A program made the translations under genes and the position numbers. Shown here piece after piece: positions 15,346-62,200 of a stretch of 64,000 nucleotides of DNA. The notes under the pieces are model-generated. The model had not been told where the DNA came from, ran no database searches, and saw nothing but the letters and a program-made list of their open reading frames with translations. How positions within the stretch are numbered: position 1 is the stretch's first letter; each line of letters opens with the position of its first letter. The stretch is from Yuukianura sp. NJ FZ-2021. Lineage: Eukaryota. The stretch is from assembly GCA_046563655.1 (NCBI GenBank), contig CM102285.1:8494001-8558000 (forward strand), read 5' to 3'.

Positions 15346-16017
15346 TTAGTATCCGTAGCTCTTCGGAGCGGAGTAGGCGTCGTGGACACGCGGAAGAGCC
15401 AGGCTCTTGAGGATCTCTTCTGGGATTGGTGGGGATGTTGGAAGATGGTCTCCCTTGGCGACGAATCCATGTTCATCAGCGGTGTAGGTGACGGTGAATC
15501 GCTGGCCCTCGGGGCTTGTGAAAGAGTAGGATCCTTGCTTGACCTGGGCTGGTCCTTCTGGGTGTCCAAGGTGCTTGAGGCTTCCGGACTCGCTTTGGGA
15601 AGTTCCATCGCTGGACTCGACGTTCATGGTGTAGTGTCCAGCGTTGTCGGTGCTGACGACCTGTCGAACAATTGTGGCAACTGGAAGGCTGGATTTGACG
15701 AAAGCCGTTGAGGAATGGCCATATCCGTAGTCGTTCTTGGGCACATCAGCTGGAATTGGTGCTGGAGCTTGGTATCCGTAGGAGGTCATGACCTTTGGCG
15801 TATCAGCGACGACGACGACCGTTGGACGCGGAGCGACATAGCTTCCGTAGTGGTTGGACTGCATTGGTGGGTCAGCCGGAGCCAGCGTGGTCATTGGTGG
15901 AGCCATTGTGTATGACTCAATTCGGATGTCGGGCTTGACGACATGATGGTTGTAGTAAGCGTTGGGCATGCCCAAGGCACTGACGATGCACAAAGCGGCA
16001 ACTGCGATAACTTGCAT
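15346..16017 (-). CDS. Cuticular protein, CPR family RR-1 type (chitin-binding R&R consensus), 223 aa, intronless
   Basis: Hydrophobic signal peptide [16 protein letters not shown]; Pro/Ala/Tyr-rich linker; R&R consensus [32 protein letters not shown] followed by the RR-1-typical [11 protein letters not shown]. Confidence 0.95.
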
Positions 16018-16090
16018 GATGAAACTTTTTGGAAAATTGGATTTCGAAAATTGGAATTTTAGTTGTGTTGTCGTAAGAGGTGGAAGTCGG

Positions 16091-16130
16091 TGACTGGATA
16101 CTGGCTACTCAGTTTGTCGCCCGTTTTATA
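16091..16130 (-). promoter_or_regulatory. TATA box + Inr-like core promoter of the cuticle protein gene
   Basis: Minus-strand TATAAAA at 16130-16124, with CCAGTA/CCAGTC initiator-like motifs about 28-35 nt downstream and about 80 nt upstream of the ATG. Confidence 0.7.
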
Positions 16131-20580: not shown

Positions 20581-23500
20581 ATGGTTGATTCAACTGAAAA
20601 CTTCGTAGAGTATGGAACTCCACTGGAACCTCTGGAAGAAGGTAAACAAAATTACTTACTAAAACTGATTTTCCGCGCTTGATGTTTAGACACGGGCAGG
20701 ACGGGCTTAGTCTTTTGCGAGTCACTTTTAATGGATTCAATGATTATTTTCTTGTAGATGATGTACCAAGCAAGAAGCCCGTATCTGTTCAGGATCAAAT
20801 TGCCGTTGATGATCAAGGCCGGCGACGATTTCATGGAGCCTTTACTGGTGGATTTTCCGCTGGTTATTATAATACTGTTGGGTCAAAAGAAGGTTGGACA
20901 CCAGCTGAGTTCAAATCATCCAGACAAAATCGAGCAGAGACATCAACTAACCGGAAGGGCCAGAATGTGCAGGACTTTATGGACGAGGAGGTAGATATAC
21001 TAAACAAAGAAAAACAATAATGGAGCAAAATAGTAATGAGGGTAATACTAATGATTAGTAGTGAACTTGCCCTGATTCAGTTCCCATTTGGTTTCTATGC
21101 AAAACCTGGCATGCTAATGTGATTTTCTCGTAGGACTTGGGAGCGTTTGGTATTGCACCTCAAATACTTCGCGCGACTACTGATTTCGAACAGCGGGAAA
21201 GTCGTAAACGTGTCCGACCATCTCCTGACTCGGGGCCCATTCCAGGAGTACCAGTTTTGGAACAAATTATTCAGCCAGTGAAGTAAGAAGTAGTAAACTG
21301 CTTCATGAATATTTTTCACGAACTTTAATACTTTCCAGAATTGAGATTTTTTTTACCATTGAGTAGAGACACAATCGGAATCCGTATTCTTCAGCGAATG
21401 GGATGGAGACCAGGACAAGGGATTGGACCACGATTAACCAAAGCTGAGAGGATAGCCGAACGCGAACGGAGAGAGGAAAAGAAACGTCGGAAAAGCCAAA
21501 AGAATAAGGAAGACATACGTGATCAGTCAACAGAAGAATCCTCAAACACTGCAGAAGCAAGAGTGTACGGGTGTTATGTTCCCCCTGAGTTTCGAAAGGC
21601 TAAGGAAGATTCGGATTCCGAAGACAGCATCATCGACATCTCTCAAGTCACCTTTGCACCGGACGATTTTGAAGATCCGCTGTGCAATCCGAAGGAAAAT
21701 ACGTTTGGACTTGGTTACACGGGGTTGGATCGTTCTGCCTTATCATTCGGAGCAATTGATTTATTTGGAACTGACGCTGGAATAAAAAGTCGTGTCGAAA
21801 ACCGCAAGTTAAACATTCGAGGAGAGGTAATCTAACAGCTAAAAGAAACATCATTATGGTCAATACAAGTTTAATTTCTGATATTTTGAGTCATATTTCT
21901 CAGGCTTTTGGAATTGGAGCATTCGAAGACGCTGATGAAGAGGTTTACAACCGAAATGACTTTTCTCAATACGATTTCTCTCTTGAAACTCCGGAGGAAC
22001 GAAAAAAACGTCGAGGTGATGAACGGCGTTCAAAGAATGAAAAACCTGCAGGTACTGACGCTGGGGTGCTACCTGGATTCGTGGTAGCCAAACGACCTCC
22101 ACCACTGCGGAAATATTTTCCACCGCCACCATTGCCTAAGAACTTTGAACCGAAACACTACATTAAACGGTCTCGTTTTGATCAGCCGCCTCCGACAGCT
22201 GTTGAGGAATCATCTAAGAAGAAGCTCGGGCTTGATCGTCATCGTCTTACCATTGAGGAGCGGCAAGTATTACTTGGTGAAGAGAAAGTACCGCTAACCC
22301 CACAGGAACAACTGGAGATAGAGGAAAAAGCAAAGGAGGAGGCGGAGCAGCTCAAGAGGGACAAAGCAATTGAAAAAGCAGAACGTCTGAAGAAGTTTAC
22401 GGAAGTTCTTCAGACATACACCTCTAATAAAGCCGCTCCCCAAGGCGGGCAAGGAACTGCAGCGTTTAAGCCGTTCGTGAAGAATCCGGAGAAGCAAGAG
22501 CGTTATGAAAAGTATATGACTCTGATTGCAGCCGGATTTTCAGGTAACTTTACGAACTACCAAAGCCTATTTTGTTTTATTTACATGTGGTTGATGTAGT
22601 TTTGTGTTTTCAGAATGCCTCAAAGATTTACAACCACTGGAAATGACGGAATGGGAACGGGAAAGAGAGCGGATGGAATTCGAACGAGCATCAGCTTTGT
22701 ATCGACCTATGGGAAACGTTATTGCATCTCGATTTGTGTCTGCTCAGTCTCATGACATTTCTCACTTGGGTATGGCAAACTCGCTTTATTTTCATAAGTT
22801 AAAATTGACAGACAGTGACACAGACAAACATTAGCATATATAACTTTAAAAAATACATAATTGTGTTTTTTTACAGTCCCAGTGAAAGAAGCAAAAGAAG
22901 AGAAGGATCCTACGCAAGATCCGAAAGTGGCTGCAAAATTGGGCCTCTTTGGAAAATTAACCCATAAAGTCTACGAATGGCATCCAGATCGCCTCATGTC
23001 TAAACGTTTTAATGTTCCCCATCCACATCCTGAGTAATTGAACTGAAAGTTATTATGTTTTACCTTGACGTTCTTTATTAGTCTCTCTAATATACTTCTT
23101 TTAATTTAGATCGAAAATGGTTGGTGTTGTTCGGCGGGATATCCTGCGTTCAGTTCCTCTTCCTACTGATAACAACTCGACAGCCGGAGGATCTTCTACA
23201 AGCGGCGGCGTAGAAACAGCCATAGTTGTGCCACCGCCTCAACCAGTCAAAAAATCACTGTTTGACAACCTGGATTTCTCAAAGCCTCCTCCCGGTCTTC
23301 TTCCAGTTCAACAAACGGCAATAACAACATCGGAAGAAGATATTTGTGCTCCAGGAACCGAGCAGGAAGGAGTAGAAAACAAACTCACACAGCCCAAAGC
23401 AGAAACGGAATCCTCCAAAGCTGAAGTACAAGAGCCCGTAGTTACAAAACCTCCGATTGATCTGTTCAAAGAGATATTTGAAAATTCTTCATCTGAATCT

Positions 23501-24349
23501 GACGAGGACGAACCTCAGAAACTACCAACACCGCCACGTTTAGCTGCCCCAGCAAAACCCTCGCGGTTTGAGACTAGAGAACGCAAGTTCGACAGAGAAA
23601 GTGGAATTCATCTAGAACGAAGGGACGAGAAAGAGCTGAAGGACAACCGAGAATCAAATCATCATGATCCACCAAAGTCAAAAGGGATTTTTGATAATCT
23701 GGATTTTTCTAAACTGGACGCCCCAAGAGAGAAGAGCGAGGTGACCGAACGAGTAAAATCAAACAGGGATACCGGAGATGAGAGAAAGTCAGTCACCAAA
23801 AATGAGAGAAAAAGCGACGCAGAGGAAGATGATGTCTATGGTCCACTCCCTCCTCGTCCTTCCATTTCTGCCAGTTCGACCGTGTCAACGGACATTCAAA
23901 GGACAAAGGCAGAGCCTCGTAGTGTCTTATCAAAGAGTAGCAGAGGGAATCCTATTAATTCCACATCCAGCCAACAGAATAACGACGAAGTCATGTGGGT
24001 TGAAGTATCAAAGGGAAAAAGAAGCCAACACAGGTCTAGCTCCAGCAGCAACGAAAGTGAAAGTATCAGAACTCGTAAACAGAAGAAGAAGAAGAAATTA
24101 AAGAAGACGCATCGACGGAGGGCGTCTTCATCTTCCAAGTCAAAGAAATCCAAAAAGAGAAAGGATGTCAAGTCTAAAAAATCCAAGAGGCATAAAAGGG
24201 AGTCGTCAAGCGAGAGCTCCGGAAGTGAAGATGAAACAGAAACGGATTCAGACTCGGACGACTCTGCTCTTCAAAAAATTAAAATTCATCAATCATTCAA
24301 CAACAAGGCTCTACTGTCCAAATTAAAAGAACTGACACGTCCCAAGTAG
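20581..24349 (+). CDS. GPATCH1: G-patch domain-containing protein 1 (splicing factor); exons 20581-20641, 20758-20990, 21134-21282, 21367-21826, 21904-22543, 22614-22769, 22877-23033, 23110-24349
   Basis: N-terminal [10 protein letters not shown] and the conserved [32 protein letters not shown]...DFMDEED segment; G-patch [61 protein letters not shown]; Lys/Ser-rich tail. All seven introns are GT-AG and keep the frame. Confidence 0.95.
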
Positions 24350-24619
24350 TCAAATGTGCAGGACTAGCGCAAGCGCACGCCCGTGTCTTGTAGAAAACGA
24401 AATTAAGAAGTTAATTTATTTAACACTTCCAATTTCTAAGTCTTGTTGACAACAAAATATTCAGCTCCTTCGACATAAAGTTTATGATGATGATGGTGAC
24501 ATCCGTTGCGTTCAATCTTCATTTCAATTCCGCCAATCCTCAAACATTCCTAAAAACACAAAAATTTTGAAATTAAGATGAAAGCGCGTTTCTAACTAAC
24601 TTTTCATGTTAAACTTTAA

Positions 24620-24688
24620 GCGATCATTATAAAAACCAATCGTCACCATAAGATCAGACTGGGGCGGTATATACTATAATCATGTCCA
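24620..24688 (-). ncRNA. SNORD31: Box C/D snoRNA U31/SNORD31-like (yeast snR67 site); predicted guide for the 28S P-loop Gm (yeast Gm2619 equivalent)
   Basis: Minus strand: ATGATTA (C) tagt ATATACCGCCCCAG T CTGA (D') tcttatg GTGACGA (C') ... ATGA (D). The guide ATACCGCCCCAGTCTGA matches human U31 as I recall it and is complementary to the conserved 28S CUGGGGCGGUA. It lies in intron 24550-24726. Confidence 0.85.
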
Positions 24689-25140
24689 GCTTTTCAAAGT
24701 AATTTTTGAAAGTGACCTTCCATTACCTCTTTAGTGAAAGTTGCTCGCTCATGATCCTTGGGAGTTACAAGAAGCGCTGTGCTGTCGTATTTCCAGCACA
24801 TCTCCCAAGGAATCGCTTCAACATGGAACATGGACAGATGACAGCCAAGTTGTTACTAAAATTAGTGATCTAGTACGTCACGTCTTGTGTTATGATGTCA
24901 GACAATGTACTGGAGAGGGGGAATCCTTTGGGGTTGAGGGTGGGGATGATTCCGTTCTGAATCTTGTTCTTGGAACAATGTGACACTCCAGCCGCGTCTA
25001 AAACACAAGAATGACATGAAATTCGATTTAATTAATTTCAAAATTACTGTTGAGGATATTGCAGAAGACATGCTACGGCAAGGGGTAAGCTCGTGGCAGA
25101 GTATGACGTAAAGGGATGCCTTAAAGTGTAACTCCCTGTA

Positions 25141-25251
25141 AATCTCAGGCTAGTGTAAATTAATTAAATCAAGTAATTTTCACTGCCGTTCCTTTTAAGG
25201 AACACCCAGTAAAAATACTCATACGAACGAGACGAGTGCTCATCATTGAAA
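25141..25251 (-). ncRNA. Box C/D snoRNA U30/SNORD30-like; predicted guide for 18S Am in ACGAACGAGAC (human Am1383 equivalent)
   Basis: Minus strand: ATGATGA (C, 25246-25240), guide GTCTCGTTCGT, ATGA (D'), internal GTTCCTT/AAGGAAC hairpin, GTGAAAA (C'-like), CTGA (D, 25148-25145). The guide is an 11-nt perfect complement of the conserved 18S ACGAACGAGAC, and human U30 carries the same TCTCGTTCG core. Confidence 0.75.
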
Positions 25252-25493
25252 TACAAGGCTACACTTGAACTTAAGGCACAAAGTGGGGGTACTTAAAATG
25301 GAATTTTAGACATTCCAGCTAAAGGATTACGACAAAACCACTTACTTGGAATTTGCATTTCATCAAAAAACGACTTTCGGAGAAGGTTGATGTCCATCAG
25401 TGATGAGCCTTAATTAAATCAACACAGACTTAATTAAAAACATTTTAGTCTTCAAAGTAGACATTTTGAAGTTGGCCTTGGTTGGCACGCGTT

Positions 25494-25576
25494 TTGACTC
25501 TCAGAGTGTGTTTAAAGGAACAATGAATCTTCATATGTCGATCAAAGCGAGCTGAGTTGGTCATCATCTGAGTCAA
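25494..25576 (-). ncRNA. SNORD29: Box C/D snoRNA U29/SNORD29-like, copy 1 (yeast snR71 site, 28S Am2946 equivalent)
   Basis: Minus strand: ATGATGA CCAACTCAGCTCGC T TTGA ... ATGAAGA ... CTGA, with a TTGACTC/GAGTCAA terminal stem. The guide pairs with 28S GUGAGCUGGGUU (two G-U pairs), and the D'+5 rule lands on the A. Confidence 0.85.
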
Positions 25577-25760
25577 GGACGCGGTTCTTGAAACCATGAA
25601 AGTTGAATAGATCAAAAGGTCAACTCACCTCAAAAGTCAATCTCAACTGCCACAGCAAGACTCCTGTTTATGCCACCTTCCTAGAAATGTATGACATCAA
25701 ACATGAATTAGTTCGCATATCATTGTGGTTCTTGAAAGCGTCATTTGTTTTCGAGCGTTT

Positions 25761-25835
25761 GATTTCAGAGTAGGTAAGTAGGAACAAAGACTCTTCATGG
25801 AAAAATCAAAGCGAGCTGAGTTGGTCATCATATTC
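25761..25835 (-). ncRNA. SNORD29: Box C/D snoRNA U29/SNORD29-like, copy 2
   Basis: Same C box (25831-25825), invariant guide CCAACTCAGCTCGCT-TTGA, C' ATGAAGA, D CTGA (25768-25765); in intron 25681-25885. Confidence 0.85.
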
Positions 25836-26135
25836 TTTGGTTAAGTGTTGACAAATTAATTAAAAACAGAGTGAAATTGACTTACATCAGCATTAATCAT
25901 AGAGATCATAGAATTCATGACTTGACTCGGAACTGTATGGCCATGTAATCTCCTCCTATCCAGCAACTCCAGATCAAATCTCGTAGTCTCATGTCATGTC
26001 AACTCAGCCAGTCAGTCACAGCTCACACACGCTCGTCCATCTGATTCCAGCAGCCCAGGAAACTATGCAAACACAACCAGAAACGGATCAAAAGCTGAAC
26101 GCGTGATTTCAAAGTTAAAGTTGACAGGCACAATA

Positions 26136-26208
26136 TATTTCAGAGTAGGTAAAAGGAACAAAGGTTCTTCATTGCAAATCAAAGCGAGCTGAGTTGGTCA
26201 TCATGAAA
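26136..26208 (-). ncRNA. SNORD29: Box C/D snoRNA U29/SNORD29-like, copy 3
   Basis: C box 26204-26198, invariant guide, C' ATGAAGA, D CTGA 26143-26140; in intron 26063-26253. Confidence 0.85.
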
Positions 26209-26419
26209 ACCAAAAGTATTTAGTGTATAGATTAGGATGGAAATGAAACTTACAGTATTCTGGGCTGCGAATGTGGCTTTGAAGACAAAACTTGGCCTCG
26301 CTTCATCTCCAAATCAGCTGGCAGTTCCCTTAAAAAATAGAAAATGAGCAATTGAAAACTGTCAAAACAAATTACATTCACAACTAACTGAAGTTCTGCT
26401 TGCTCAATCCTTTGGGCAA

Positions 26420-26494
26420 CTTTTCAGAGTAGATAATAAGGAACAATGAATCTTCATGGAAAAATCAAAGCGAGCTGAGTTGGTCATCACATTC
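26420..26494 (-). ncRNA. SNORD29: Box C/D snoRNA U29/SNORD29-like, copy 4
   Basis: C box GTGATGA 26490-26484, invariant guide, C' ATGAAGA, D CTGA 26427-26424; in intron 26329-26536. Confidence 0.85.
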
Positions 26495-28711
26495 TAAAAA
26501 TACTTAATGAAACAAAATTAATACCGTTTTGCTTACCCCTCGTGACGCCCGGTTCCTGGAGAGCAGACCGTCTAACACTAACTTCAGCAACTTTCGCTGG
26601 AAAAGAACGTCTTAGGTGATACCGTGTGTTCTCCGAATTTGGCCTTTGTCTCCATACTTTCTAAATCCGACATACAGTATTACGAGTGCTGCTGCTCCCT
26701 GACTACAAGACGGATGCCTGGAATCGGATGCCTAAAAATAGAAACAAAGATCGTAATTAATATTTCTCACTTAAATTGTTTTTCCTGCTGCTCTCTTACA
26801 AGTACAAGCATCCAATTTCCTGTTCATCCCGCCCCCTTCACTTTCTCTGGAATTCCTTACATCTTCCAAAGAATAATTGCTCAGATCTCAGATGCATTTT
26901 TTGACAACAAGCGACTCTTCTTTCTTTGATCCACGGAGGCAAAGTATAGAATCATCATCAAAGGTAAGTGCATCTTCACAAGAGCTCATTTTGAAATGTC
27001 CTTGCTTTCGCCTTTCATGTGAATCCGCTTTCTAGGATCCACTGGAGAATGCACCTGAAAGCAGAAGAAAACTAATTATTGTGCCTGAATTTATTTTTTT
27101 TAAAAACTCATTAAACTGTAGGAGTCCTTTCATGTTTTCGAGTAAATTCGGCGCTTAATTCTTCTATCACCCTTTTACCCAATTATCAAGACAGTCAATT
27201 TCCAATTAATGTCAGATTCACGCCTTCCCTTTCTCATGCGAACACAAAAGACTTTTAGTTGAAACCCAAGAGAAAGGAGCTTTCTAAGCAAGAACGCAAA
27301 AGAAAAGAAAAGCAGCGTCTTGGTAGAAAAAAAATTGACTGGAAAGAATAGAAACTTAAAAAAGTTACTCGACGCTAAACCAATAGTGATAACAAAAGAA
27401 AGCGTCGCAGCCCCACTTTCTCCTCCCTCTTCAACACAAGCAAACACAATCCACCACTCTCTCGCCACTTTCACGGCTGGAGCTCCCAGGGAGTAGTTTA
27501 CACACCTTCCCTTCAGTAAATTATTTCCAAATCAACACCACCAACGAAATACTAGAGCAAAAAGTAAGTTCAGCCAAAAAGAAAAAAAATCCACCGAAAA
27601 ATCGATTAGTCTCGCCCATATTCCATGCACAACAGTTTGTCCATAGAGGAAGAGGTTAAGGTCAGTTTGCCAAATAATTAGACCGAATCATTTGGAATTT
27701 TTGTGGATTCGAATTACGGAGCCAATGATAAAGGGCGTGGCAGCAGTAAATGAAAAATCCCGCAACGAAAATTGGAACTTGTTCAACTTTTTAAGTTTTA
27801 CAAACGAAAAGCCTTCCCTAAGCCGTTGTAAAGCGGGCATTCAGAAGGACAGGATCGGAAATTCAGCTTATAAGATGAAAAAAAAACACGAGCAGCTATT
27901 AAGACCATGAGAATTAGAAATAAAAATTAGCACACCACTACTGGCCCTTCATCTGTTCTTATTGTGTAAATACAAGGTTTCAATTTATCCTTCAACGAAC
28001 AAATTAAGCGTTTTACTTTACCAATTTTCCTTCAAAGTTCTGTACTCAAGCCTGAATGTCAAAAATAGAACTAAAAACCTAAAGCTGAAAGCTGAGCGAA
28101 ACGTCTGCTGAAGAACTGATCCAAACTAAGAAAAAAAGAAACCAAACACATTTTTTTTTCTTTTCTTCGTCTTCTTTTTTTAAATGAAAAGCTGGCTTTT
28201 CCTCCCAAAACAAATCTTCTGTCACTTCCACTGCAAAAACTACGGTACGGTAGTTTTTCTACTCTTGAGTACTGGAAAAATTCAAAGCTAATTAGAACCA
28301 GGAAGAGCGGAGCTGAAAAAGACCGATAGCTGGCTACAAGAGATTTAAACCGGAAGAGACCATTCAGTTCATATTACCACGAGCAGAAACGTTATAAACT
28401 TATGCCAAAAAAAGTAAAATGAGGAAAAAGTTTGTGAAGCACTCTTTATAAACTTTCCCCAGCTGCTTTTGACTGACACTAGAAATTAAAATGTAGAAAA
28501 CTAACATTATCCTAATCGCATCCCTCTCAGCCTCTTACCAAAAACTTTCCCTTTGTTTATCCAAGACAAAGGCAAAAGTTTTACTTTCTCACGTAAAGTT
28601 CCCATATCCAGCTTCCACCGAACCTCTAAACCGTAGCTGAATCGCTTAGAACTAAAGAGCGGGCTTTTTCGAAATATGTAATCTACGTCTCAAGTCGCCA
28701 TTTTAGTCATT

Positions 28712-28876
28712 TGGATTGTTCAGACAAATGCCTCAAGATCAGTCATGAATCCACAAGTCCGCAAATCCAACACCGTTCCACAATTGTAAAAGAGAACCTT
28801 TCACGGTAGTGGAGTTACATGTGTAGCAAACTGTAAACTGTGGTCAGGCTCGTCATCGAATCATCATTACAATCCA
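28712..28876 (-). ncRNA. SNORD15: Box C/D snoRNA U15/SNORD15-like, copy 1 (double guide: 28S Am2281 and Gm2288 yeast equivalents)
   Basis: Minus strand: TGGATTGT stem, ATGATGA (C), GATGACGAG C CTGA (D'), about 110-nt insert, GAGGCATTTG T CTGA (D), ACAATCCA stem. Both guides and the long size match human U15 as I recall it, and both pair with 28S CAAAUGCCUCGUCAUC. Confidence 0.9.
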
Positions 28877-29159
28877 GAATTCGTCCGTTTCTGTCAAGTA
28901 AATTAACACACAAAAAAAACAACTAAATATTCTTACTCGAAGAGTTCCAACAAGGCGAGGAAATCCAGTCTGTTACTCTGTTAGTGCATTGCCCGTACAA
29001 CTAATGTCGAATTTTCCCGAGAGTGCGTTGCATTTCATCCTATGCCTTTCCAGAAAATCTGAAACAAAAGAAAAAATTAAGTAAAATCATAAGCTGGAAG
29101 AGCAATGCATATTTATTGTTACGCAAAGTACTAAAGAAAACTACTTATTAAAAATGGTT

Positions 29160-29324
29160 TGGATTGTTCAGGCAAATGCCTCAAGTTCATTCATAAATCC
29201 ACAAATCCGCGAATCCAAAACTACTCCACAGTTGTAAAAGAGAACCTTTTACGGTTGTAGAGTTTCATTTGTCGCAGATTATAAACTGTGGTCAGCCTCG
29301 TCATCGTATCATCATTACAATCCA
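29160..29324 (-). ncRNA. SNORD15: Box C/D snoRNA U15/SNORD15-like, copy 2
   Basis: Same 165-nt architecture, 8-bp terminal stem, both guides intact; in intron 29059-29378. Confidence 0.9.
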
Positions 29325-29579
29325 GAATTTGTTAGTTTTCGCGACTAATAGCTGAAAAAACTATATATATTTTCGTACCAAACACTTCCAGTAACACGCG
29401 GTAATCCATCCGGCTGGTGTAATGTACTTATAGCACAAGAGTGTCGAGTTTCCGGAAGATCACATTGCATCATCTTGCAGATTTCCAGAAAATCTGAAAC
29501 ACAAGATCAAATGAGTGAAATCACGCTGGAAATACGAAATATGTACTGAATGAAAGTCTTCAAATTGCTTTCCCTATTC

Positions 29580-29744
29580 TGGATTGTTCAGGCAAATGCC
29601 TCAAGTTCATTCATAAATCCACAAATCCGCGAATCCAAAACCACTCCACAATTGTAAAAGAGAACCTTTCACGGCAGTAGAATTTCATTTGTCGCAGATT
29701 ATAAATTGCGGTCAGGCTCGTCATCGTATCATCATTACAATCCA
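29580..29744 (-). ncRNA. SNORD15: Box C/D snoRNA U15/SNORD15-like, copy 3
   Basis: Same 165-nt architecture, 8-bp terminal stem, both guides intact; in intron 29494-29792. Confidence 0.9.
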
Positions 29745-32700
29745 ACATATTTTGCTTGTTGATTTAATTAAATTTCTAAATAATGCACTTACAGTAGACG
29801 AAACATTGGATAACGCTCCTGTCTATTACGCCGTCAAGATCAACTCCTTGGAAGTGGAGAGCAAGATTTCTAAAGAAATCTCCCATTTTTGTTTTCCAGC
29901 ATCTTCCGCTTCTACATCATCGCGTCGTTGCTTCTTTTCAAAAAACCTGCGCTAAAATGTAAGATCGAATTAACTTCCAAATGTTAAGAATCACAAGCTG
30001 TAAAAGCTGGAAACAGCCACTCCAATGAAAGTTTCAATACTAAACACTCGTTAGTTCGCACAGCACAACAGCATTCCAAAATTCCATTTCGCAGAACGTT
30101 TACACAAAGGGAACGACAAATGTTTTCACTTTTCCCAGAAACGAAACAGTTGTACAGATCCAATTACATCGTTTTCGTTAATTGAATTAAATGCACTTCG
30201 TAACTTATTGACTCACTTTACAAATCACGGGCCGTCGACCTTTGCCTGACCTTGAAATAATCAAAAAGGAACAGTGAAAGTCAGGTTCCGTTGGTTCTTT
30301 AATTCATGGCGTGACATGTCAATGTGGTTTCGTGTGACTTCAGTTGATTCGATTCCATGTCATCTGCCTTCTCCTTTCCCTTCCTTTCAGTCACTTATCA
30401 ATCTCACAATGAAGATTGAGTGCCTTTGAGGTGAGACGCTCTGAAAGTCAATAGAAAATCAGAGATTGGAAATTTGAACTCAAACAGCATCTCTCTACTC
30501 GATTCTTCCATTCCAGTTCAGAAACCATTCAATTTCCAAACACATTTCTACTAAAACTTACGGAAGAATGAATATTCCAACTCCAGATTCCAGTTCACAA
30601 AGAAATCACAGGACGGTGCAGAGTCGTGTATTCCAGGAAACAGATTCTAAAGTCTTTGTTAAAGGCTTGATAGAAAGTTATTGGATCTCCAGTTGTACGA
30701 CATTTTTTTGAACAAATCATTTCCTGGATTCGGATCCACAGAATCATAATGCGAATGAACGTTTGAGAAATATGGACGAAAGTTGCTGAGCGTTTTGAAG
30801 TCAAAGAGATCCTTACTCCCATTTTCCAAACTATGTTAACTTGTATATAATGTAAAGAGATGTGAGTTTAATTTACTACGGCTTCTTCTATTCAATCTTC
30901 TACTTCTACGTCATTGACCTCCTTTGTCACAGAACATTACGAACAAAGTCTGAAAAAAATTCAAAAGAAAATACAAATGAAATTGACAAAATTCCCAGAA
31001 TTTGATCGTAGTAGTGCACAAAAACTAAATTCGAAATAAATTACATCAAGCTTTCACTTCAACATTCAACAACGAAAATGAAAAAAGTAAACGTTGTTTT
31101 CCATTTCTATGCGGAAGTTATACGAGAGTTAGGGGAATTGTGGGAACTCCTGAGCAAACAAATGTAAGTTAACTTAAAAAATTGGGCTGAAATAATAATT
31201 TTAATAGGAACGCTTAAACCAACATGTCACGCAAGAGACCAACTCCCTATTTCTGGATTGGACAAACCCTATTCCTTATTACAATTTGCTATTTACAATT
31301 CCATTTACAAATAATATTTACTAAAGTGGAAGTCAATTTTCACTTGACCTGAGAAAGTACATGTCATTTCATTTTGACAATTCATGAACCTCCCACCTCC
31401 ACACAAAAGAAAGTCCGCCAACTTTCCCATTGTCTCCTTTCATCAGGGTGGAAAGCCATTCCGAACAGCAAGCATGTCTATACCAGTGAAAGCAAAAATA
31501 CCTTCTGCATGTCCCTCGTGGGGCATTGTGGCACAGCGGCGTCATTAACTTCTATATTGAATTTTTTTTCTCGTATTTTGCTCCATCATACCGGTGGCTG
31601 CTGCATTTTACGAATCCAGGTTTTGTTTAAAAAGAAAAAGCATAATGTGTTTTCACTTTGGACTTGGAAAAGTGAAACAAACTGAAATGAAATGTTTTTA
31701 GTTCCGGCAAAAAAAAAGCTCAGAAAACAACACAGCAATTTCGGAATGCGTCTTTTTAGCTGAAAGCGAGCGACTTTCACCTACCATCGAAAATGCAGGG
31801 AAAGTCCCAGTTGTTAATAATACATGTACCTACTAACTTTCACCGGCCCAGGACCCAGTGGCCATTCTTTTTCAGAAAAAGAGAACAACGAACCGAGACT
31901 TTTTCTTTTAAAAATCAAACAGTCCGCTGCATTCAATGCTGCACAACTCATGTGAACAAACTAACCGGAAGTAACTGAACACACGAGAGCGAGAGAGAGA
32001 GAAAGCGAACTTTATACAAAACACAACTACAGTGGAGCACTGTCGTGAAAAATATTTTTTGTCTGTCTAGTATGTTAGTACTTTCTCGTTCCGATGCTCT
32101 AGAAAAGTGGATTTAAAAGTTTTAGTACTTCTAATCCACGGCGAGCCGAATAGCACGTTTTAGAAGCCGCCTTTAGTTCTCGAAAAAAACTAAACCTCAA
32201 AGGCCAAATTTCTGAATGTCTCACACGCTAGAAGTTCCAACCGAAAAAAAATAGGCACCAAAGCACGCAACAAAAAAAAAAGCCTCGCTTAAACTAAAAC
32301 CGCATGAGGAAAAAACTTCTTCATTTTCTCCTATGCGAACAGAACTGAAAGCACTCTAGCCCTTACAAAGGAAACTTTCTAGCAGTTTTTTTTTAAACTA
32401 AAACGAAATAGAAAATTATCTCTTTTATTCCAACGGGATTTTGACAAAGTCTCCCTCATCAAAGTTTCAAATCCAGAAAAAAGCCTTAAAAATTGCTTTC
32501 GACACACCCAGCAGCTTCAGAAGAGACAACCTTTGAATTTTGAAAGATTTCACCAAACATTGCCAAATGACTCACCCATGACCTCCTTGTTGTTCAAATG
32601 ACAAAATACTAGGTAAAAACCCAGCAGTTCACAAGAAGTTGGAAACACATTAATTTGCACCGCAGTCCTAATTAAAAATGAAATTGGAAGTAGTGAGGCC

Positions 32701-54511: not shown

Positions 54512-55406
54512 CTACGACTTTCCCCCCATTGATTCTTTTCGGACAACTTGTTCTCCCTTGGACTTCAATTTTCGGTTTAGGATGGACTGCTTGCGATGTT
54601 CTTCTTCAGCATCCAACTGCTTCCTTCTGTCAATGGCAAAATCTATTTCGCTGCTCAACTTCATAATTTTTTCAGCCAAATTCTGCTGCACTAGAGCTCT
54701 CCTCAGTTTTCCAGGCCCAACCGGTGTTCGTCTGCCATCAAGGAACGTATAATCGGGCAAATCCGTAAGAGGTCCGTAAGCGTTAGGATTCGCCGGCATT
54801 CCTTGTCTGGAAATAAGTAAATTCAACGGATTACTAATACTGAAATCAAATCAGCGTTTCAATACAAACAAATAACCAACTTAATTTTAGTACAATCACA
54901 ATCAGAAAAGACTTCCTCGTTTGTCGTAAACCGTTTAATTATGTCTGCGCCCTTGACTGGGTAGCAACAACGCATGCCCCAGGGCGAATTACGTCCACGA
55001 CAAGAATAGGATACCGATACTGTGAAGAAAGCAAAACATGAATGTTACTAAAAATCGAAGGATTGTTTGAAGCTAGTAAGTCAATCACTAATGAAACCGA
55101 TGAACGAAGAAGTCTTCCCTTCATTGATAAACTATTACTATTCTTCAGACTTAATTGTTTCTCCACAGTCGAATGGTAAGACAGGGATAACTAAAATCAT
55201 CATTGAATAACTCAGTCATCGGCAGTAGGCTACCAAGCGGCAACCATAATCAATACATAAATTAATGAAAAAAGTAATACTTACTCTTTCCGCCAATTTG
55301 ACCCAGCTGAAAGTGGAACCGTGTCATGGATTGTTCTTACATGGAAGTTGAATACGGCTGACCTCGATGAGAAGACCGGGATCCATCTTAGTAAATCCGC
55401 CCTCAT
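54512..55406 (-). CDS. mRpL52: Mitochondrial ribosomal protein L52 (mL52); exons 55406-55285 and 54806-54512
   Basis: Arg/Ser-containing transit-peptide-like N-terminus, then AGSNWRKE|QGMPANPNAYGPLTDLPDYTFLDGR, matching the MRPL52 signature (AG.QWR..QGL..NP..YGPLT.LPDWS..DGR); GT-AG intron 54807-55284. Confidence 0.93.
55139..55209 (-). ncRNA. Box C/D snoRNA snR38/SNORD1-like in the mRpL52 intron; predicted guide for 28S Gm (yeast Gm2815 equivalent)
   Basis: Minus strand: TATTC stem, ATGATGA (C, 55203-55197), AGTTATCCCTGT followed by a variant D' CTTA, GTGGAGA (C'-like), CTGA (D, 55148-55145), GAATA stem. The 12-nt guide is a perfect complement of 28S ACAGGGAUAACU and lies on the same strand as the host. 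Confidence 0.85.
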
Positions 55407-59240: not shown

Positions 59241-62200
59241 TTAATTACCTCGAAGTCGTTTGGGTGGAGGTTGAACCCTTTGGTAAGAATCGTCTGAATT
59301 ATCCGAATCAGTTCCACAAACGCTGATATCCAGATTCCGCTTTCGAAGACTTGAGGATTCTGCGATAGATCGGTACTCCCCGTTTTCCTTGCTAGTACGA
59401 CCATTAGAAGCCTCATCAATCTCAATTATTTCAATTCCATCGTCACCATTTGACCTCCCTGAAAACAAGACAAAGAAACGTTGACATTTTAGCTTCAAAT
59501 CTACTAGGAATATTTTTCATGAACATAAGTTTGAGTTAAAATCAGAAAAAGGTTTTCAGCACCGAATGTCTAAGACAGGGATAACTTTTGATCATCATGA
59601 ATCAACAACTGTAAAAAATTGCAGCTAAAATTAGACAAAGAACGTTATTTGTACCTGATCTTCTAGCGTTGTTGGCATTGTGTGGTGTAATTGTGAGCGA
59701 TCCCTTTGCTCGTAGTGGTGTAGCATTGGCAAGCGGCTGTGGAATTATGGTGATCTCATCATTGATTTTTAGGGGCTTGAAAGAATTTGCTCCCCCTCCG
59801 GCAGCAACTGTTCGTGACGTCACTTGCATCTGACCTCGATTGTTCGGATTATTGGATCCCGACGGGATTGGACGGCCCGAATTATTACTGGCATTTGCCC
59901 GTTTAGAGTTCATGCTGTGGGCAGAGTAGACATGACTCTCAAAAAGTTTGTACATGCCGAACGTTGCGGTGCACACGGTGCATTTGTACGACAAATGGGC
60001 AGGTTTCAGCGTCACATTATGATCCTTGGCTACATGAGCCAAAAGCTTCCATTGGTAAACCTATGGCACAAAAATTAAGATTAACTCGTGCACTAAATCA
60101 CAAGAAACTTAATAAACATGAAATGAAATGAAACATGAAAACAGATACAAATTACAAATGAACAGAAATTCCGAATTTGACAAAACTCACCTTGCCACAC
60201 AGTGGACAGCGCCCGTTGTCCTGTCCTTTGTTGGCTGCCTCCTGCATCGAGGATGTTACCAATCCATGAGAACCGAGCAAGTGACGTTCCAGCCCTTGAT
60301 CAGTGAAAAAACGAAACTGGCATTTCTGGCAGTTCAGTGGCGGCTTGTTATAAATCATCTTCGGATGGATCTTCACTTTGTGAATCCACTGCATGTGATT
60401 TCGTAACTGATCCAAATCCTATAAAATAATCAATTCCAGTTTTAGACAATCCTGTTTTAGTTCTGATGAAGAATAAAACCTGGACTGTTTCATTGTGTAT
60501 CGTGAATCGTTATCGTACCTTGATATAACCATCGCAAATTTCGCAAATGACGAAAGAGGCCTTGCCTTGAGGTTTCGAATGGGAAGCAATTGCAGGGGCG
60601 GGGATTGAGGACTGACGAGGAAGAGGAGTAATCGATATACTCGGCTGAGAATTCTTTCCTTGATTATTACGACTCACCAACTGTGAGGCACTCTGTTATA
60701 ATTACAAAGGGATAAATTAATTGACGATTAATACCAGAGACAACTGAATACTTCATTTTGTTAAATTCTTACTCGTTGAGAAGCATTGGATGCACCAGCT
60801 GCCATTCCCATAGTAGACAAAAACTTCGTATTTGAGTTACCAGCCATTTGTAACTGGTTACCAATAACCTTAAAAGTGTACATGTCTCATGTTAATTAAA
60901 ATTTTGTTAATTGTTGAGGATATAAATGAATGTCAATTTGAACTTAATGATTGAGCAAGGAACTATGGCATTACCTGATGAATAACTTGTCCTCCTACAA
61001 TTTGTGGCTGTGTCAATACTTGTTGGCCAGAAGCGGTCCGCATTATCATTCCTACAAACAATGCCCAGTATTTAGAATTTTTAGTCTCATGCTGAGTTTA
61101 TGATTTTAGACAAAGGGAACTTAAAAAATATTCTCAAGTTATCGATTTTTCTGCTTACCCCGAGGAATGCTCTGCTGGTTAAGTTTGCTAACAGGATTCA
61201 GCATCCCAGGGTTGGTTCTTATTAAGCCCGGAAGTGGTTTTGCTTTTGGAGCTTGGAGTAGCGGTGGAAGTTGCATGCGATTACCCTGTTGAATGTATTT
61301 GTTTGACATGGAGCTCATTGTGGGGTACTGGGCAAGAAGACTTCTTTGCGACTGCTGTTGCTGAGTATTACTTCCAACGTAAGCGCCAGTCTGGTTATTA
61401 TAGGCTCCTTGATTTACTAGTCGATTCTTCGGCATTTTTGGTAATTTGCCAGGCGTATCCCAGTCTAGCGGTGGCTCCAGATTCTTGTCCATCCGAAATC
61501 TCTTCGTACAGCTTACTAAATGCCTGGTTAATTTTGCCTTAGAATTGTCTTCGAACGTACAATGGGGGCACTGATGAACGGCTGGTGCTCTGAAAATTTA
61601 GAAAAATTCAATTAAGACATTGATTACAGTCAAAACTCTTTTGCTAGCACTTACCTTTCTAGTCTTGGTCGGATTTTGTGATCCTGTTCCATGTGAAGTA
61701 GGATTTCATTCGGAAGCTTAGTCGTATGCTTACAAAAGTTACAGCGGTAGCAATTGTTTCTCATGTGCGGAGTCTCGAGATGCGTCGACATAACCAATTC
61801 TGATTCCGTTTTGAAATTGCAGTTCTTACATTTGTGAAGAGTATGTCGGAAGGGCTCATTGTTTTCCTTGCTTTCTTCAATGTTATTTTTCAAAGAAATT
61901 ATATGCTGTTGCGTTTGTATGTTGGGTACGCCGCTGCGACTCTTCGCTCGTTCCTTCTCGGCCTTACGTCTCTGAATCTTGAGGAGGTCAACTTGGACAT
62001 ACTCCTGAACCAAGGACATGCCCAAATTGATCAGGAGCTTCCCCACGGGGCTTTCGAAGTAATCTTCCGATTTCTTCTTGGGAGTGATCTCTTCAATGTC
62101 TTCGTCTCCGCCATCGGCTGCAGCCTTCTCCTTCCTAACTTCTTCAGCGATTTCCTTCACGTATGCCTTCAGGACTTTCTGTCCACTTTGCTCGAAAACG

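Follow-up and report, generated by a model that had tools for sequence, protein, structure and literature searches.

The stretch of DNA considered here, 64,000 nucleotides (nt) of contig CM102285.1 from Yuukianura sp. NJ FZ-2021 (assembly GCA_046563655.1, positions 8,494,001 to 8,558,000) and referred to below as the window, is arthropod DNA; cuticle (R&R), HSP20 and G-patch proteins are encoded in it. Its minus strand carries three U15-like, four U29-like and one U31-like small nucleolar RNAs (snoRNAs) of the box C/D type, together with a ninth element of uncertain standing, all of them within the putative introns of a locus that ends in a polyadenylation (poly(A)) signal (Table 1). With a probability of roughly 0.82, which covers the reading as a whole and not the number of transcription units, these features point to a real cluster of intron-encoded box C/D snoRNAs carried by one or more non-coding hosts of the Uhg/SNHG type. 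Loci of this kind are known in flies and vertebrates as snoRNA host genes, and the annotation is accordingly sound but ordinary.

Table 1. Features of the window (positions counted from its first nucleotide; scores are from Rfam covariance models)
Feature	Position	Strand	Details
U15-like box C/D snoRNA, copy a	29583..29740	minus	SNORD15 (RF00067) 49.9 bits, E 1.9e-8, gathering 75
U15-like snoRNA, copy b	29163..29320	minus	SNORD15 48.4 bits
U15-like snoRNA, copy c	28715..28872	minus	SNORD15 46.2 bits
U29-like snoRNA, copy 1	26424..26496	minus	snR71 (clan CL00051) 20.2 bits over 26430-26496
U29-like snoRNA, copy 2	26136..26209	minus	SNORD29 22.6 bits
U29-like snoRNA, copy 3	25765..25837	minus	snR71 20.0 bits over 25787-25837; full length aligned with paralogues
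U29-like snoRNA, copy 4	25496..25573	minus	SNORD29 21.6 bits; 7-bp terminal stem TTGACTC/GAGTCAA
Doubtful box C/D candidate (ninth element)	25145..25246 (about)	minus	C box ATGATGA, D box CTGA, outer stem reaching 25258-25136
U31-like snoRNA	24618..24689	minus	SNORD31 (RF00089) 28.3 bits, E 0.005, gathering 40
Exons E1-E4 (motif model)	E1 29951-29793, E2 29493-29379, E3 29058-28937, E4 28651-28539	minus	
Exons E5-E8 (motif model)	E5 27054-26861, E6 26731-26537, E7 26328-26254, E8 26062-25886	minus	
Exons E9-E12 (motif model)	E9 25680-25629, E10 25408-25346, E11 24997-24727, E12 24549 to about 24397	minus	
AATAAA poly(A) signal, last exon	24415..24420	minus	about 130 nt into last exon
TATAAA, then 20 nt on CTTTTTCCTC	28421..28450 (tract at 28430)	minus	between U15 and U29 arrays; candidate
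TATAAA (32016), then CTTTCTCTCTCTCTC	31991..32016	minus	upstream of 29951; candidate
Conserved blocks shared with contig L001	27502..27786	minus	two of three collinear short blocks
SNORA17-like H/ACA candidate	30428..30570	minus	27.3 bits, gathering 29, E 0.05
snoR38-like box C/D snoRNAs	55138-55210, 59535-59606	minus	44.6 and 42.2 bits, gathering 45
R&R cuticle protein (Chitin_bind_4)	15346-16104	minus	

Rfam covariance models were run over the whole window at gathering thresholds, over 23.5-32.5 kb with E-value reporting (E up to 10), and over narrower segments of 1.9 kb (taking in the U29 copies and the ninth element) and 151 nt (the ninth element). Under E-value reporting eight of the nine elements have a family-level match, all on the minus strand: the U15-like copies at 46.2-49.9 bits on SNORD15, the U29-like copies at 20.0-22.6 bits on SNORD29/snR71 and the U31-like copy at 28.3 bits on SNORD31. 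A preliminary description of this DNA had counted nine intronic box C/D snoRNAs and expected Rfam to return SNORD15, SNORD29, SNORD30 and SNORD31. Its U15, U29 and U31 assignments stand, whereas SNORD30 did not appear, the default gathering thresholds return none of the families, and the ninth element is left without a match; the observation is thus partly confirmed, and the interpretation built on it partly supported. All U15 and U29 copies have the box C/D architecture, with a C box (RUGAUGA) near the 5′ end, a CUGA D box near the 3′ end and a terminal stem. Methylation sites were predicted by applying the fifth-nucleotide rule to the guides.

The three U15-like copies match SNORD15 over its full length (E 1.9e-8 to 1.7e-7) without reaching the gathering threshold of 75 bits. 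Their C box, D′ guide GAUGACGAG, D guide GAGGCAUUUG and D box all agree with the SNORD15 consensus, and a terminal stem in copy a, TGGATTGT/ACAATCCA, extends that element to 29744-29580. Both guides are kept in every copy and their target strings overlap, so that in 3/3 copies the D and D′ guides predict a methylated A and a methylated G with a spacing of exactly 7 nt. Human SNORD15A shows the same relation; it directs modification of large-subunit ribosomal RNA (LSU rRNA) at LSU-A3764 via box D and at LSU-G3771 via box D′ (PMC5027482). Among the three U15 units, identity is 89.5% within the snoRNA, against 50.3% in the upstream flank and 49.8% in the downstream flank. Two bacterial contigs from metagenome-assembled genomes (MAGs; 42 kb and 368 kb) also matched a U15 5′ motif with 20 specified bases, a search in which about one match was expected by chance. 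They were rejected as U15 relatives, since their number is near that expectation and they score 21-23 bits on SNORD15, about 25 bits below the 46-50 bits of the window copies, and they were retained as a control. Viral contigs scanned with the U15 and U29 motifs gave no match to either. An internal stem of the U15-like snoRNAs, CCGCAATT/AATTGTGG in copy a and CCACAGTT/AACTGTGG in copy b, has changed on both sides with its pairing kept, and matches the stem of the plasmodium_snoR21 model.

None of the four U29-like copies reaches the gathering thresholds of the SNORD29/snR71 clan (48/60 bits). Judged by the control contigs, matches of 20-23 bits could stem from a C box and a guide alone; the case for the U29 copies therefore rests on their pattern of conservation. 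Within the window, identity among the four units is 85.9% inside the snoRNA and 36.9% and 42.0% in the flanks. A degenerate U29 motif, run as a metagenome scan, picked out a single contig, L001, which belongs to a related species; 2732 of its 3215 nt were examined. It holds five U29-like copies on one strand in the same layout flanked by splice sites; four of these score 23.2-28.0 bits on SNORD29/snR71, whereas the best model for the remaining copy is snR61, a member of that clan (24.1 bits). When the window is compared with L001 by blastn only the snoRNAs align, at 78-91% identity, with no exon or intron similarity, and when all nine copies from the two species are taken together the bodies are 85.3% identical but the 10-nt flanks 31.7% and 35.7%. 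The terminal stems vary in sequence and keep their pairing, as in TTGACTC/GAGTCAA of window copy 4 and TGACC/GGTCA of L001 copy a. Within the D′ guide, which is of the ACUCAGCUCACU type and aligns with the consensus guides of SNORD29 and snR71, the string ACUCAGCUCGCU is invariant in 9/9 copies. The nucleotide predicted to be methylated is an A, in agreement with the SNORD29 site Am4493 (PMC3511168).

A second element, UUGUUCC, is also invariant in all nine U29 copies; it follows the C′ box at a distance of some 11 nt from box D, whose adjoining bases vary. The Dictyostelium DdR11 consensus has a near-identical UUUGUUCCUU at the equivalent position. The element may provide an accessory pairing to rRNA beside the D′ target.

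The U31-like snoRNA departs from the consensus in its boxes (C UGAUUA, D AUGA). The two changed positions, C-box G6 and D-box C1, pair with each other in the K-turn; a change from G-C to U-A would then be compensatory, with the pair kept. Its D′ guide, ACCGCCCCAGU, is SNORD31-like, and the guide, the D′ box and the following UC (UACCGCCCCAGUCUGAUC, 18 nt) are identical to the consensus. A G is predicted as the methylated nucleotide, which agrees with the SNORD31 site Gm4166 (PMC3511168).

The ninth element, which the preliminary description named U30-like, folds with a terminal stem (z -2.35; 6 of 200 shuffles fold as well). The 9 kb, 1.9 kb and 151 nt scans, reported up to E 10, gave it no match to any Rfam family, SNORD30 (RF00088) and snoU30 (RF01283) included, and the U30 identity is not borne out. 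Its putative D′ guide predicts a methylated A, and might pair with the sites LSU-A3804 and SSU-A1383 (small-subunit rRNA). These two sites are those given for SNORD30 (PMC5389715, PMC5027482). The chances that the element is a real snoRNA are slightly below even, and that it is the equivalent of U30 is doubtful. A tenth C/D-like motif at about 26963-26885, within modelled exon E5, was rejected for want of a terminal stem beside the boxes; it has a z of -0.82, 38 of 200 shuffles fold as well, and its matches are partial, at 16-18 bits.

The exons of the host were modelled from motifs on the minus strand over 24397..29951. All 11 modelled introns run GT..AG, and nine of them hold one snoRNA element each; every one of these elements has a donor motif of GTAAG type 37-99 nt upstream, and the distance from snoRNA to acceptor is 64-105 nt for the eight supported snoRNAs and 148 nt for the ninth element. 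Box C/D snoRNAs are described as having a conserved position ahead of the acceptor, with some 50 nt between them and the branch point (PMC8162545). In L001, donors scoring at least 6 stand upstream of 4/5 copies and acceptors downstream of 4/5, the contig ending after the fifth. That donors and acceptors are kept there although the flanks are unalignable is a stronger argument for introns than the splice scores of the window itself. Exons E2 and E3 share the start ATTTTCTGGAAA; they arose by duplication and now agree at only about 50% of positions, their snoRNAs still being about 90% identical. The E4-E5 join is the least certain of the modelled junctions. At the motif level, then, the canonical splice borders of the preliminary description can be placed around all nine elements, the AATAAA with which it closed the unit is present at 24420, and its view of the locus as a non-coding, multi-intron gene of the UHG/SNHG/Uhg type with one snoRNA per intron is upheld. 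Its gene start at 29951, on the other hand, has to be given up, because E1 begins there at an acceptor (cttacattttag followed by CGCAGG) and the host must therefore begin further upstream.

Coding potential was sought in both the spliced model and the genomic frames. The longest open reading frame (ORF) with an ATG in the 1689-nt spliced model has 72 amino acids (aa), a length that 61 of 300 shuffles reach. Among 23 stop-to-stop ORFs of at least 60 aa on both strands of 24350-32200, none has a Pfam match above cut-off (two lie below threshold at E of about 0.05), and the same holds for 13 minus-strand frames overlapping E1-E4, chosen from 49 frames of at least 25 aa over 28530-29960 (two at E 0.04). 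Since these frames lack a Pfam match, the U15 host here would not be RpS3; the earlier claims of a locus with no credible ORF, and of U15 in a different host, both survive. The host could nevertheless be a coding gene that has escaped recognition, in the way that vertebrate U15 is hosted by RpS3, and a 69-aa ATG ORF over E1-E2, of a length reached by only 12 of 300 shuffles of E1-E4, would suit such a host. With no Pfam domain above cut-off in any scanned frame, no coding similarity to L001 by tblastx in the U29 part, and duplicated exons E2 and E3 so much more diverged than their snoRNAs, this is extremely unlikely. What is found is the pattern of a non-coding host, with no conserved ORF and with snoRNAs kept while the exons diverge between species and between duplicates.

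Several points weigh against an intron-encoded cluster in a non-coding host. At gathering thresholds the whole window yields no Rfam match, because every snoRNA match scores below the cut-off. Under generic splice matrices the acceptor tracts are weak, the sum of donor and acceptor scores for each element is reached by 0.9-27% of 20,000 random places, and the paralogous copies are non-independent. The assignment of targets rests on identity with the family consensus guides and on the literature. Finally, there is no Myc E-box (CACGTG) between 20169 and 36092, unlike Drosophila Uhg1, 2 and 5, which are described as carrying one (PMC4430873). The weak acceptors could mean that the snoRNAs are made without splicing of a host, from promoters of their own or from a nuclease-cut polycistronic precursor as in plants and yeast, the GT..AG borders being incidental; about a third of Bombyx snoRNA loci are reported to be intergenic (PMC3089462). 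Production of this kind is very unlikely given that donors of GTAAG type precede 9/9 elements here, and 4/5 copies in L001 despite unalignable flanks, and that the two snoR38-like snoRNAs found in introns of protein-coding genes of the window are spaced from their acceptors in the same way. The scores below gathering thresholds, with the non-consensus C and D boxes of the U31 copy, could alternatively be taken to mean that the elements are decayed pseudo-copies or chance motif matches without function. This is the least probable of the alternatives: whether copies of the window or of the two species are compared, conservation is sharply confined to the snoRNA bodies; the guides agree fully with the family consensus; the altered U31 boxes would still form their base pair; and the window copies outscore chance matches to the U15 5′ motif by about 25 bits. 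An intron-encoded cluster in non-coding host(s) is thus the preferred reading.

Such a cluster may belong to one transcription unit or to two. Between U15 copy c and the first U29 copy lie 2.2 kb without a snoRNA, in which the TATAAA and oligopyrimidine tract at 28421..28450 form a candidate internal promoter of the terminal oligopyrimidine (TOP) type or, alternatively, a variant poly(A) signal. An AGTAAA at 28585, followed by a U/GU-rich stretch, could be the end of a U15 unit. Three collinear short blocks are shared with L001: a CCAAT-containing block at 27786-27763, identical at 22 of 24 positions and the only one to exceed all 30 shuffles alone; a block at 27531-27502 that ends in the donor aag/GTGTGT; and a third, weaker block (ATTGG) at about 27.40-27.37 kb. 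Together, the gap, the TATAAA with its tract, the AGTAAA and the shared blocks incline the interpretation towards two tandem units, which from these sequence features seem slightly more probable than one. The upstream unit would carry U15 and start before 29951 is reached, the TATA/oligopyrimidine site near 31.99 kb being a candidate promoter and TOP start; the downstream unit would run U29-(U30?)-U31 and end at the AATAAA at 24420. Both tracts are C-initiated with at least 10 pyrimidines, and both are candidate start sites. Two observations count against two units. Of 55 TATAAA sites in the window three have an oligopyrimidine tract within 40 nt, two of them being those at 32016 and 28450 on the host strand, but with about 1.9 expected across the window this is no enrichment; and neither AATAAA nor ATTAAA occurs on the minus strand between U15 copy c and 27095. 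The intervals 27055-28714 and 29952-32100 contain no repeats found elsewhere in the window and no tandem arrays. Directly upstream of the first U29 copy of L001, at 1735-1657 (minus strand), stand a TATAAAA, an extended run of pyrimidines and a GTAAGA donor; because they are immediately preceded by an acceptor-like site, a promoter and an internal exon are both possible there.

A single host gene, which is a variant within the same overall explanation, is possible at less than even odds. One primary transcript, begun upstream of 29951 (at about 31.99 kb, possibly) and ended by the AATAAA at 24420, would then join U15, U29, the U30 candidate and U31, with a snoRNA-free intron of 1.5 kb at 28538-27055. 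It would account for the arrangement of all elements on one strand with one per intron throughout, the gap is followed by the highest-scoring acceptor of the region (27054, score 8.1), a canonical poly(A) signal is missing from the interval just described, and Drosophila Uhg genes are likewise reported to have a few introns without a snoRNA (PMC4430873). Against it stand the TATAAA with its oligopyrimidine tract and the CCAAT-containing conserved blocks, both within the gap, and the fact that L001 has no U15 in the 1.15 kb upstream of its first U29 copy.

Among known host genes, Drosophila Uhg1 reportedly holds homologues of U27, U29 and U31, a finding attributed to work by Tycowski and Steitz in 2001. 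The present locus differs from it in having no U27-type match at E up to 10, in the lack of an E-box near the candidate promoters and perhaps in the U15-type copies that lie adjacent. Seven Drosophila Uhg genes (Uhg1-5, 7 and 8) are described as having no recognisable ORF (PMC4430873; also PMC13228274, PMC5932544), with up to 16 introns that hold one snoRNA each, only two introns being empty (PMC4430873), and their box C/D isoforms are duplicated in arrays. At the motif level the non-coding layout with one snoRNA per intron is the same here. In SNHG1 the order of the snoRNAs is U29-U30-U31; here the U29-type copies precede the U31-type on the same strand, and oligopyrimidine tracts follow the two candidate TATAAA sites. 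Vertebrate UHG/SNHG1 is reported as a non-coding host of SNORD22 and SNORD25-31 (PMC7154078), and non-coding snoRNA hosts are assigned to the 5′TOP class (PMC8162545). In contrast, no SNORD22 or SNORD25-28 was found here (E up to 10, 9 kb), SNORD30 is not demonstrable, and U29 is present in four copies. Mouse Snord15a/b are described as multi-copy and intronic, in introns of Rps3 (PMC12667501); this locus has snoRNAs of that family with the same dual guide, whereas no RpS3 or other Pfam signature accompanies them and the three copies stand in tandem in duplicated exon-intron units.

On these motifs the locus appears to fit the Uhg/SNHG class in every testable feature except the Myc E-box. Orthology with SNHG1 or Uhg1 is not shown: the U29 and U31 types are co-located, but the U22 and U25-U28 types gave no match at E up to 10 and U30 is unproven. 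The ancient linkage of U29, U30 and U31 proposed in the preliminary description would thus rest on two or three co-located families, and it is weakened by the lack of SNORD22/25-28, by the end of L001 before the position expected for U30 and U31, and by the reported instability of the intronic positions of old snoRNAs, which drift (PMC3511168). It is improbable that 24.4-32 kb is one TOP-type gene carrying U15, U29, a true U30, U31 and perhaps the SNORA17-like candidate, and the direct orthologue of SNHG1/Uhg1; a host locus and its internal order would then have persisted since the protostome-deuterostome ancestor despite complete exon turnover.

By analogy with the known family, the host(s) would be transcribed by RNA polymerase II into spliced, polyadenylated RNA. 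A small nucleolar ribonucleoprotein would assemble on each intron about 65-105 nt ahead of the acceptor, and splicing with exonucleolytic trimming would free the snoRNAs, leaving the exon product as a disposable by-product. In LSU rRNA the U15-type snoRNAs would guide 2′-O-methylation at two sites, an A and a G separated by 7 nt; the U29-type would guide that of an A and the U31-type that of a G. Although guides for conserved rRNA methylations appear to be encoded here, protein-centred pipelines and Rfam at its gathering cut-offs both leave the locus empty, and correct annotation averts false models of hypothetical proteins. The locus reveals no new kind of system; it adds an arthropod data point on the conservation and drift of associations between snoRNAs and their hosts, with U29 beside U31 and U15 outside RpS3.

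Other snoRNAs are indicated elsewhere in the window. The SNORA17-like H/ACA candidate folds into two hairpins (z -2.06), with an H box AGUAGA and with ACC in place of ACA; it lies upstream of E1 and may sit in an upstream intron of the host. The two snoR38-like box C/D snoRNAs share the guide GUUAUCCCUGUC. One is in an intron of the gene for mitoribosomal mL52 (exon 54512-54850, PF18699, E 1.5e-30) and the other in an intron of a C2H2 zinc-finger gene. They resemble the snoRNAs of the host locus in strand and in placement, their donors lying 25-110 nt upstream and their acceptors 76-118 nt downstream, and differ in that their hosts are protein-coding and carry a single snoRNA each.

From 26000 to 58000 the plus strand has a negative GC skew (-0.07 to -0.32) and a positive AT skew, so that the minus strand is G- and T-rich; this run of about 32 kb covers several minus-strand genes. 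A plus-strand G-patch gene occupies 21329-24349, with a 414-aa open frame that has no Pfam match. This gene ends at 24349, tail to tail with the last exon of the host and separated from it by less than 100 nt.

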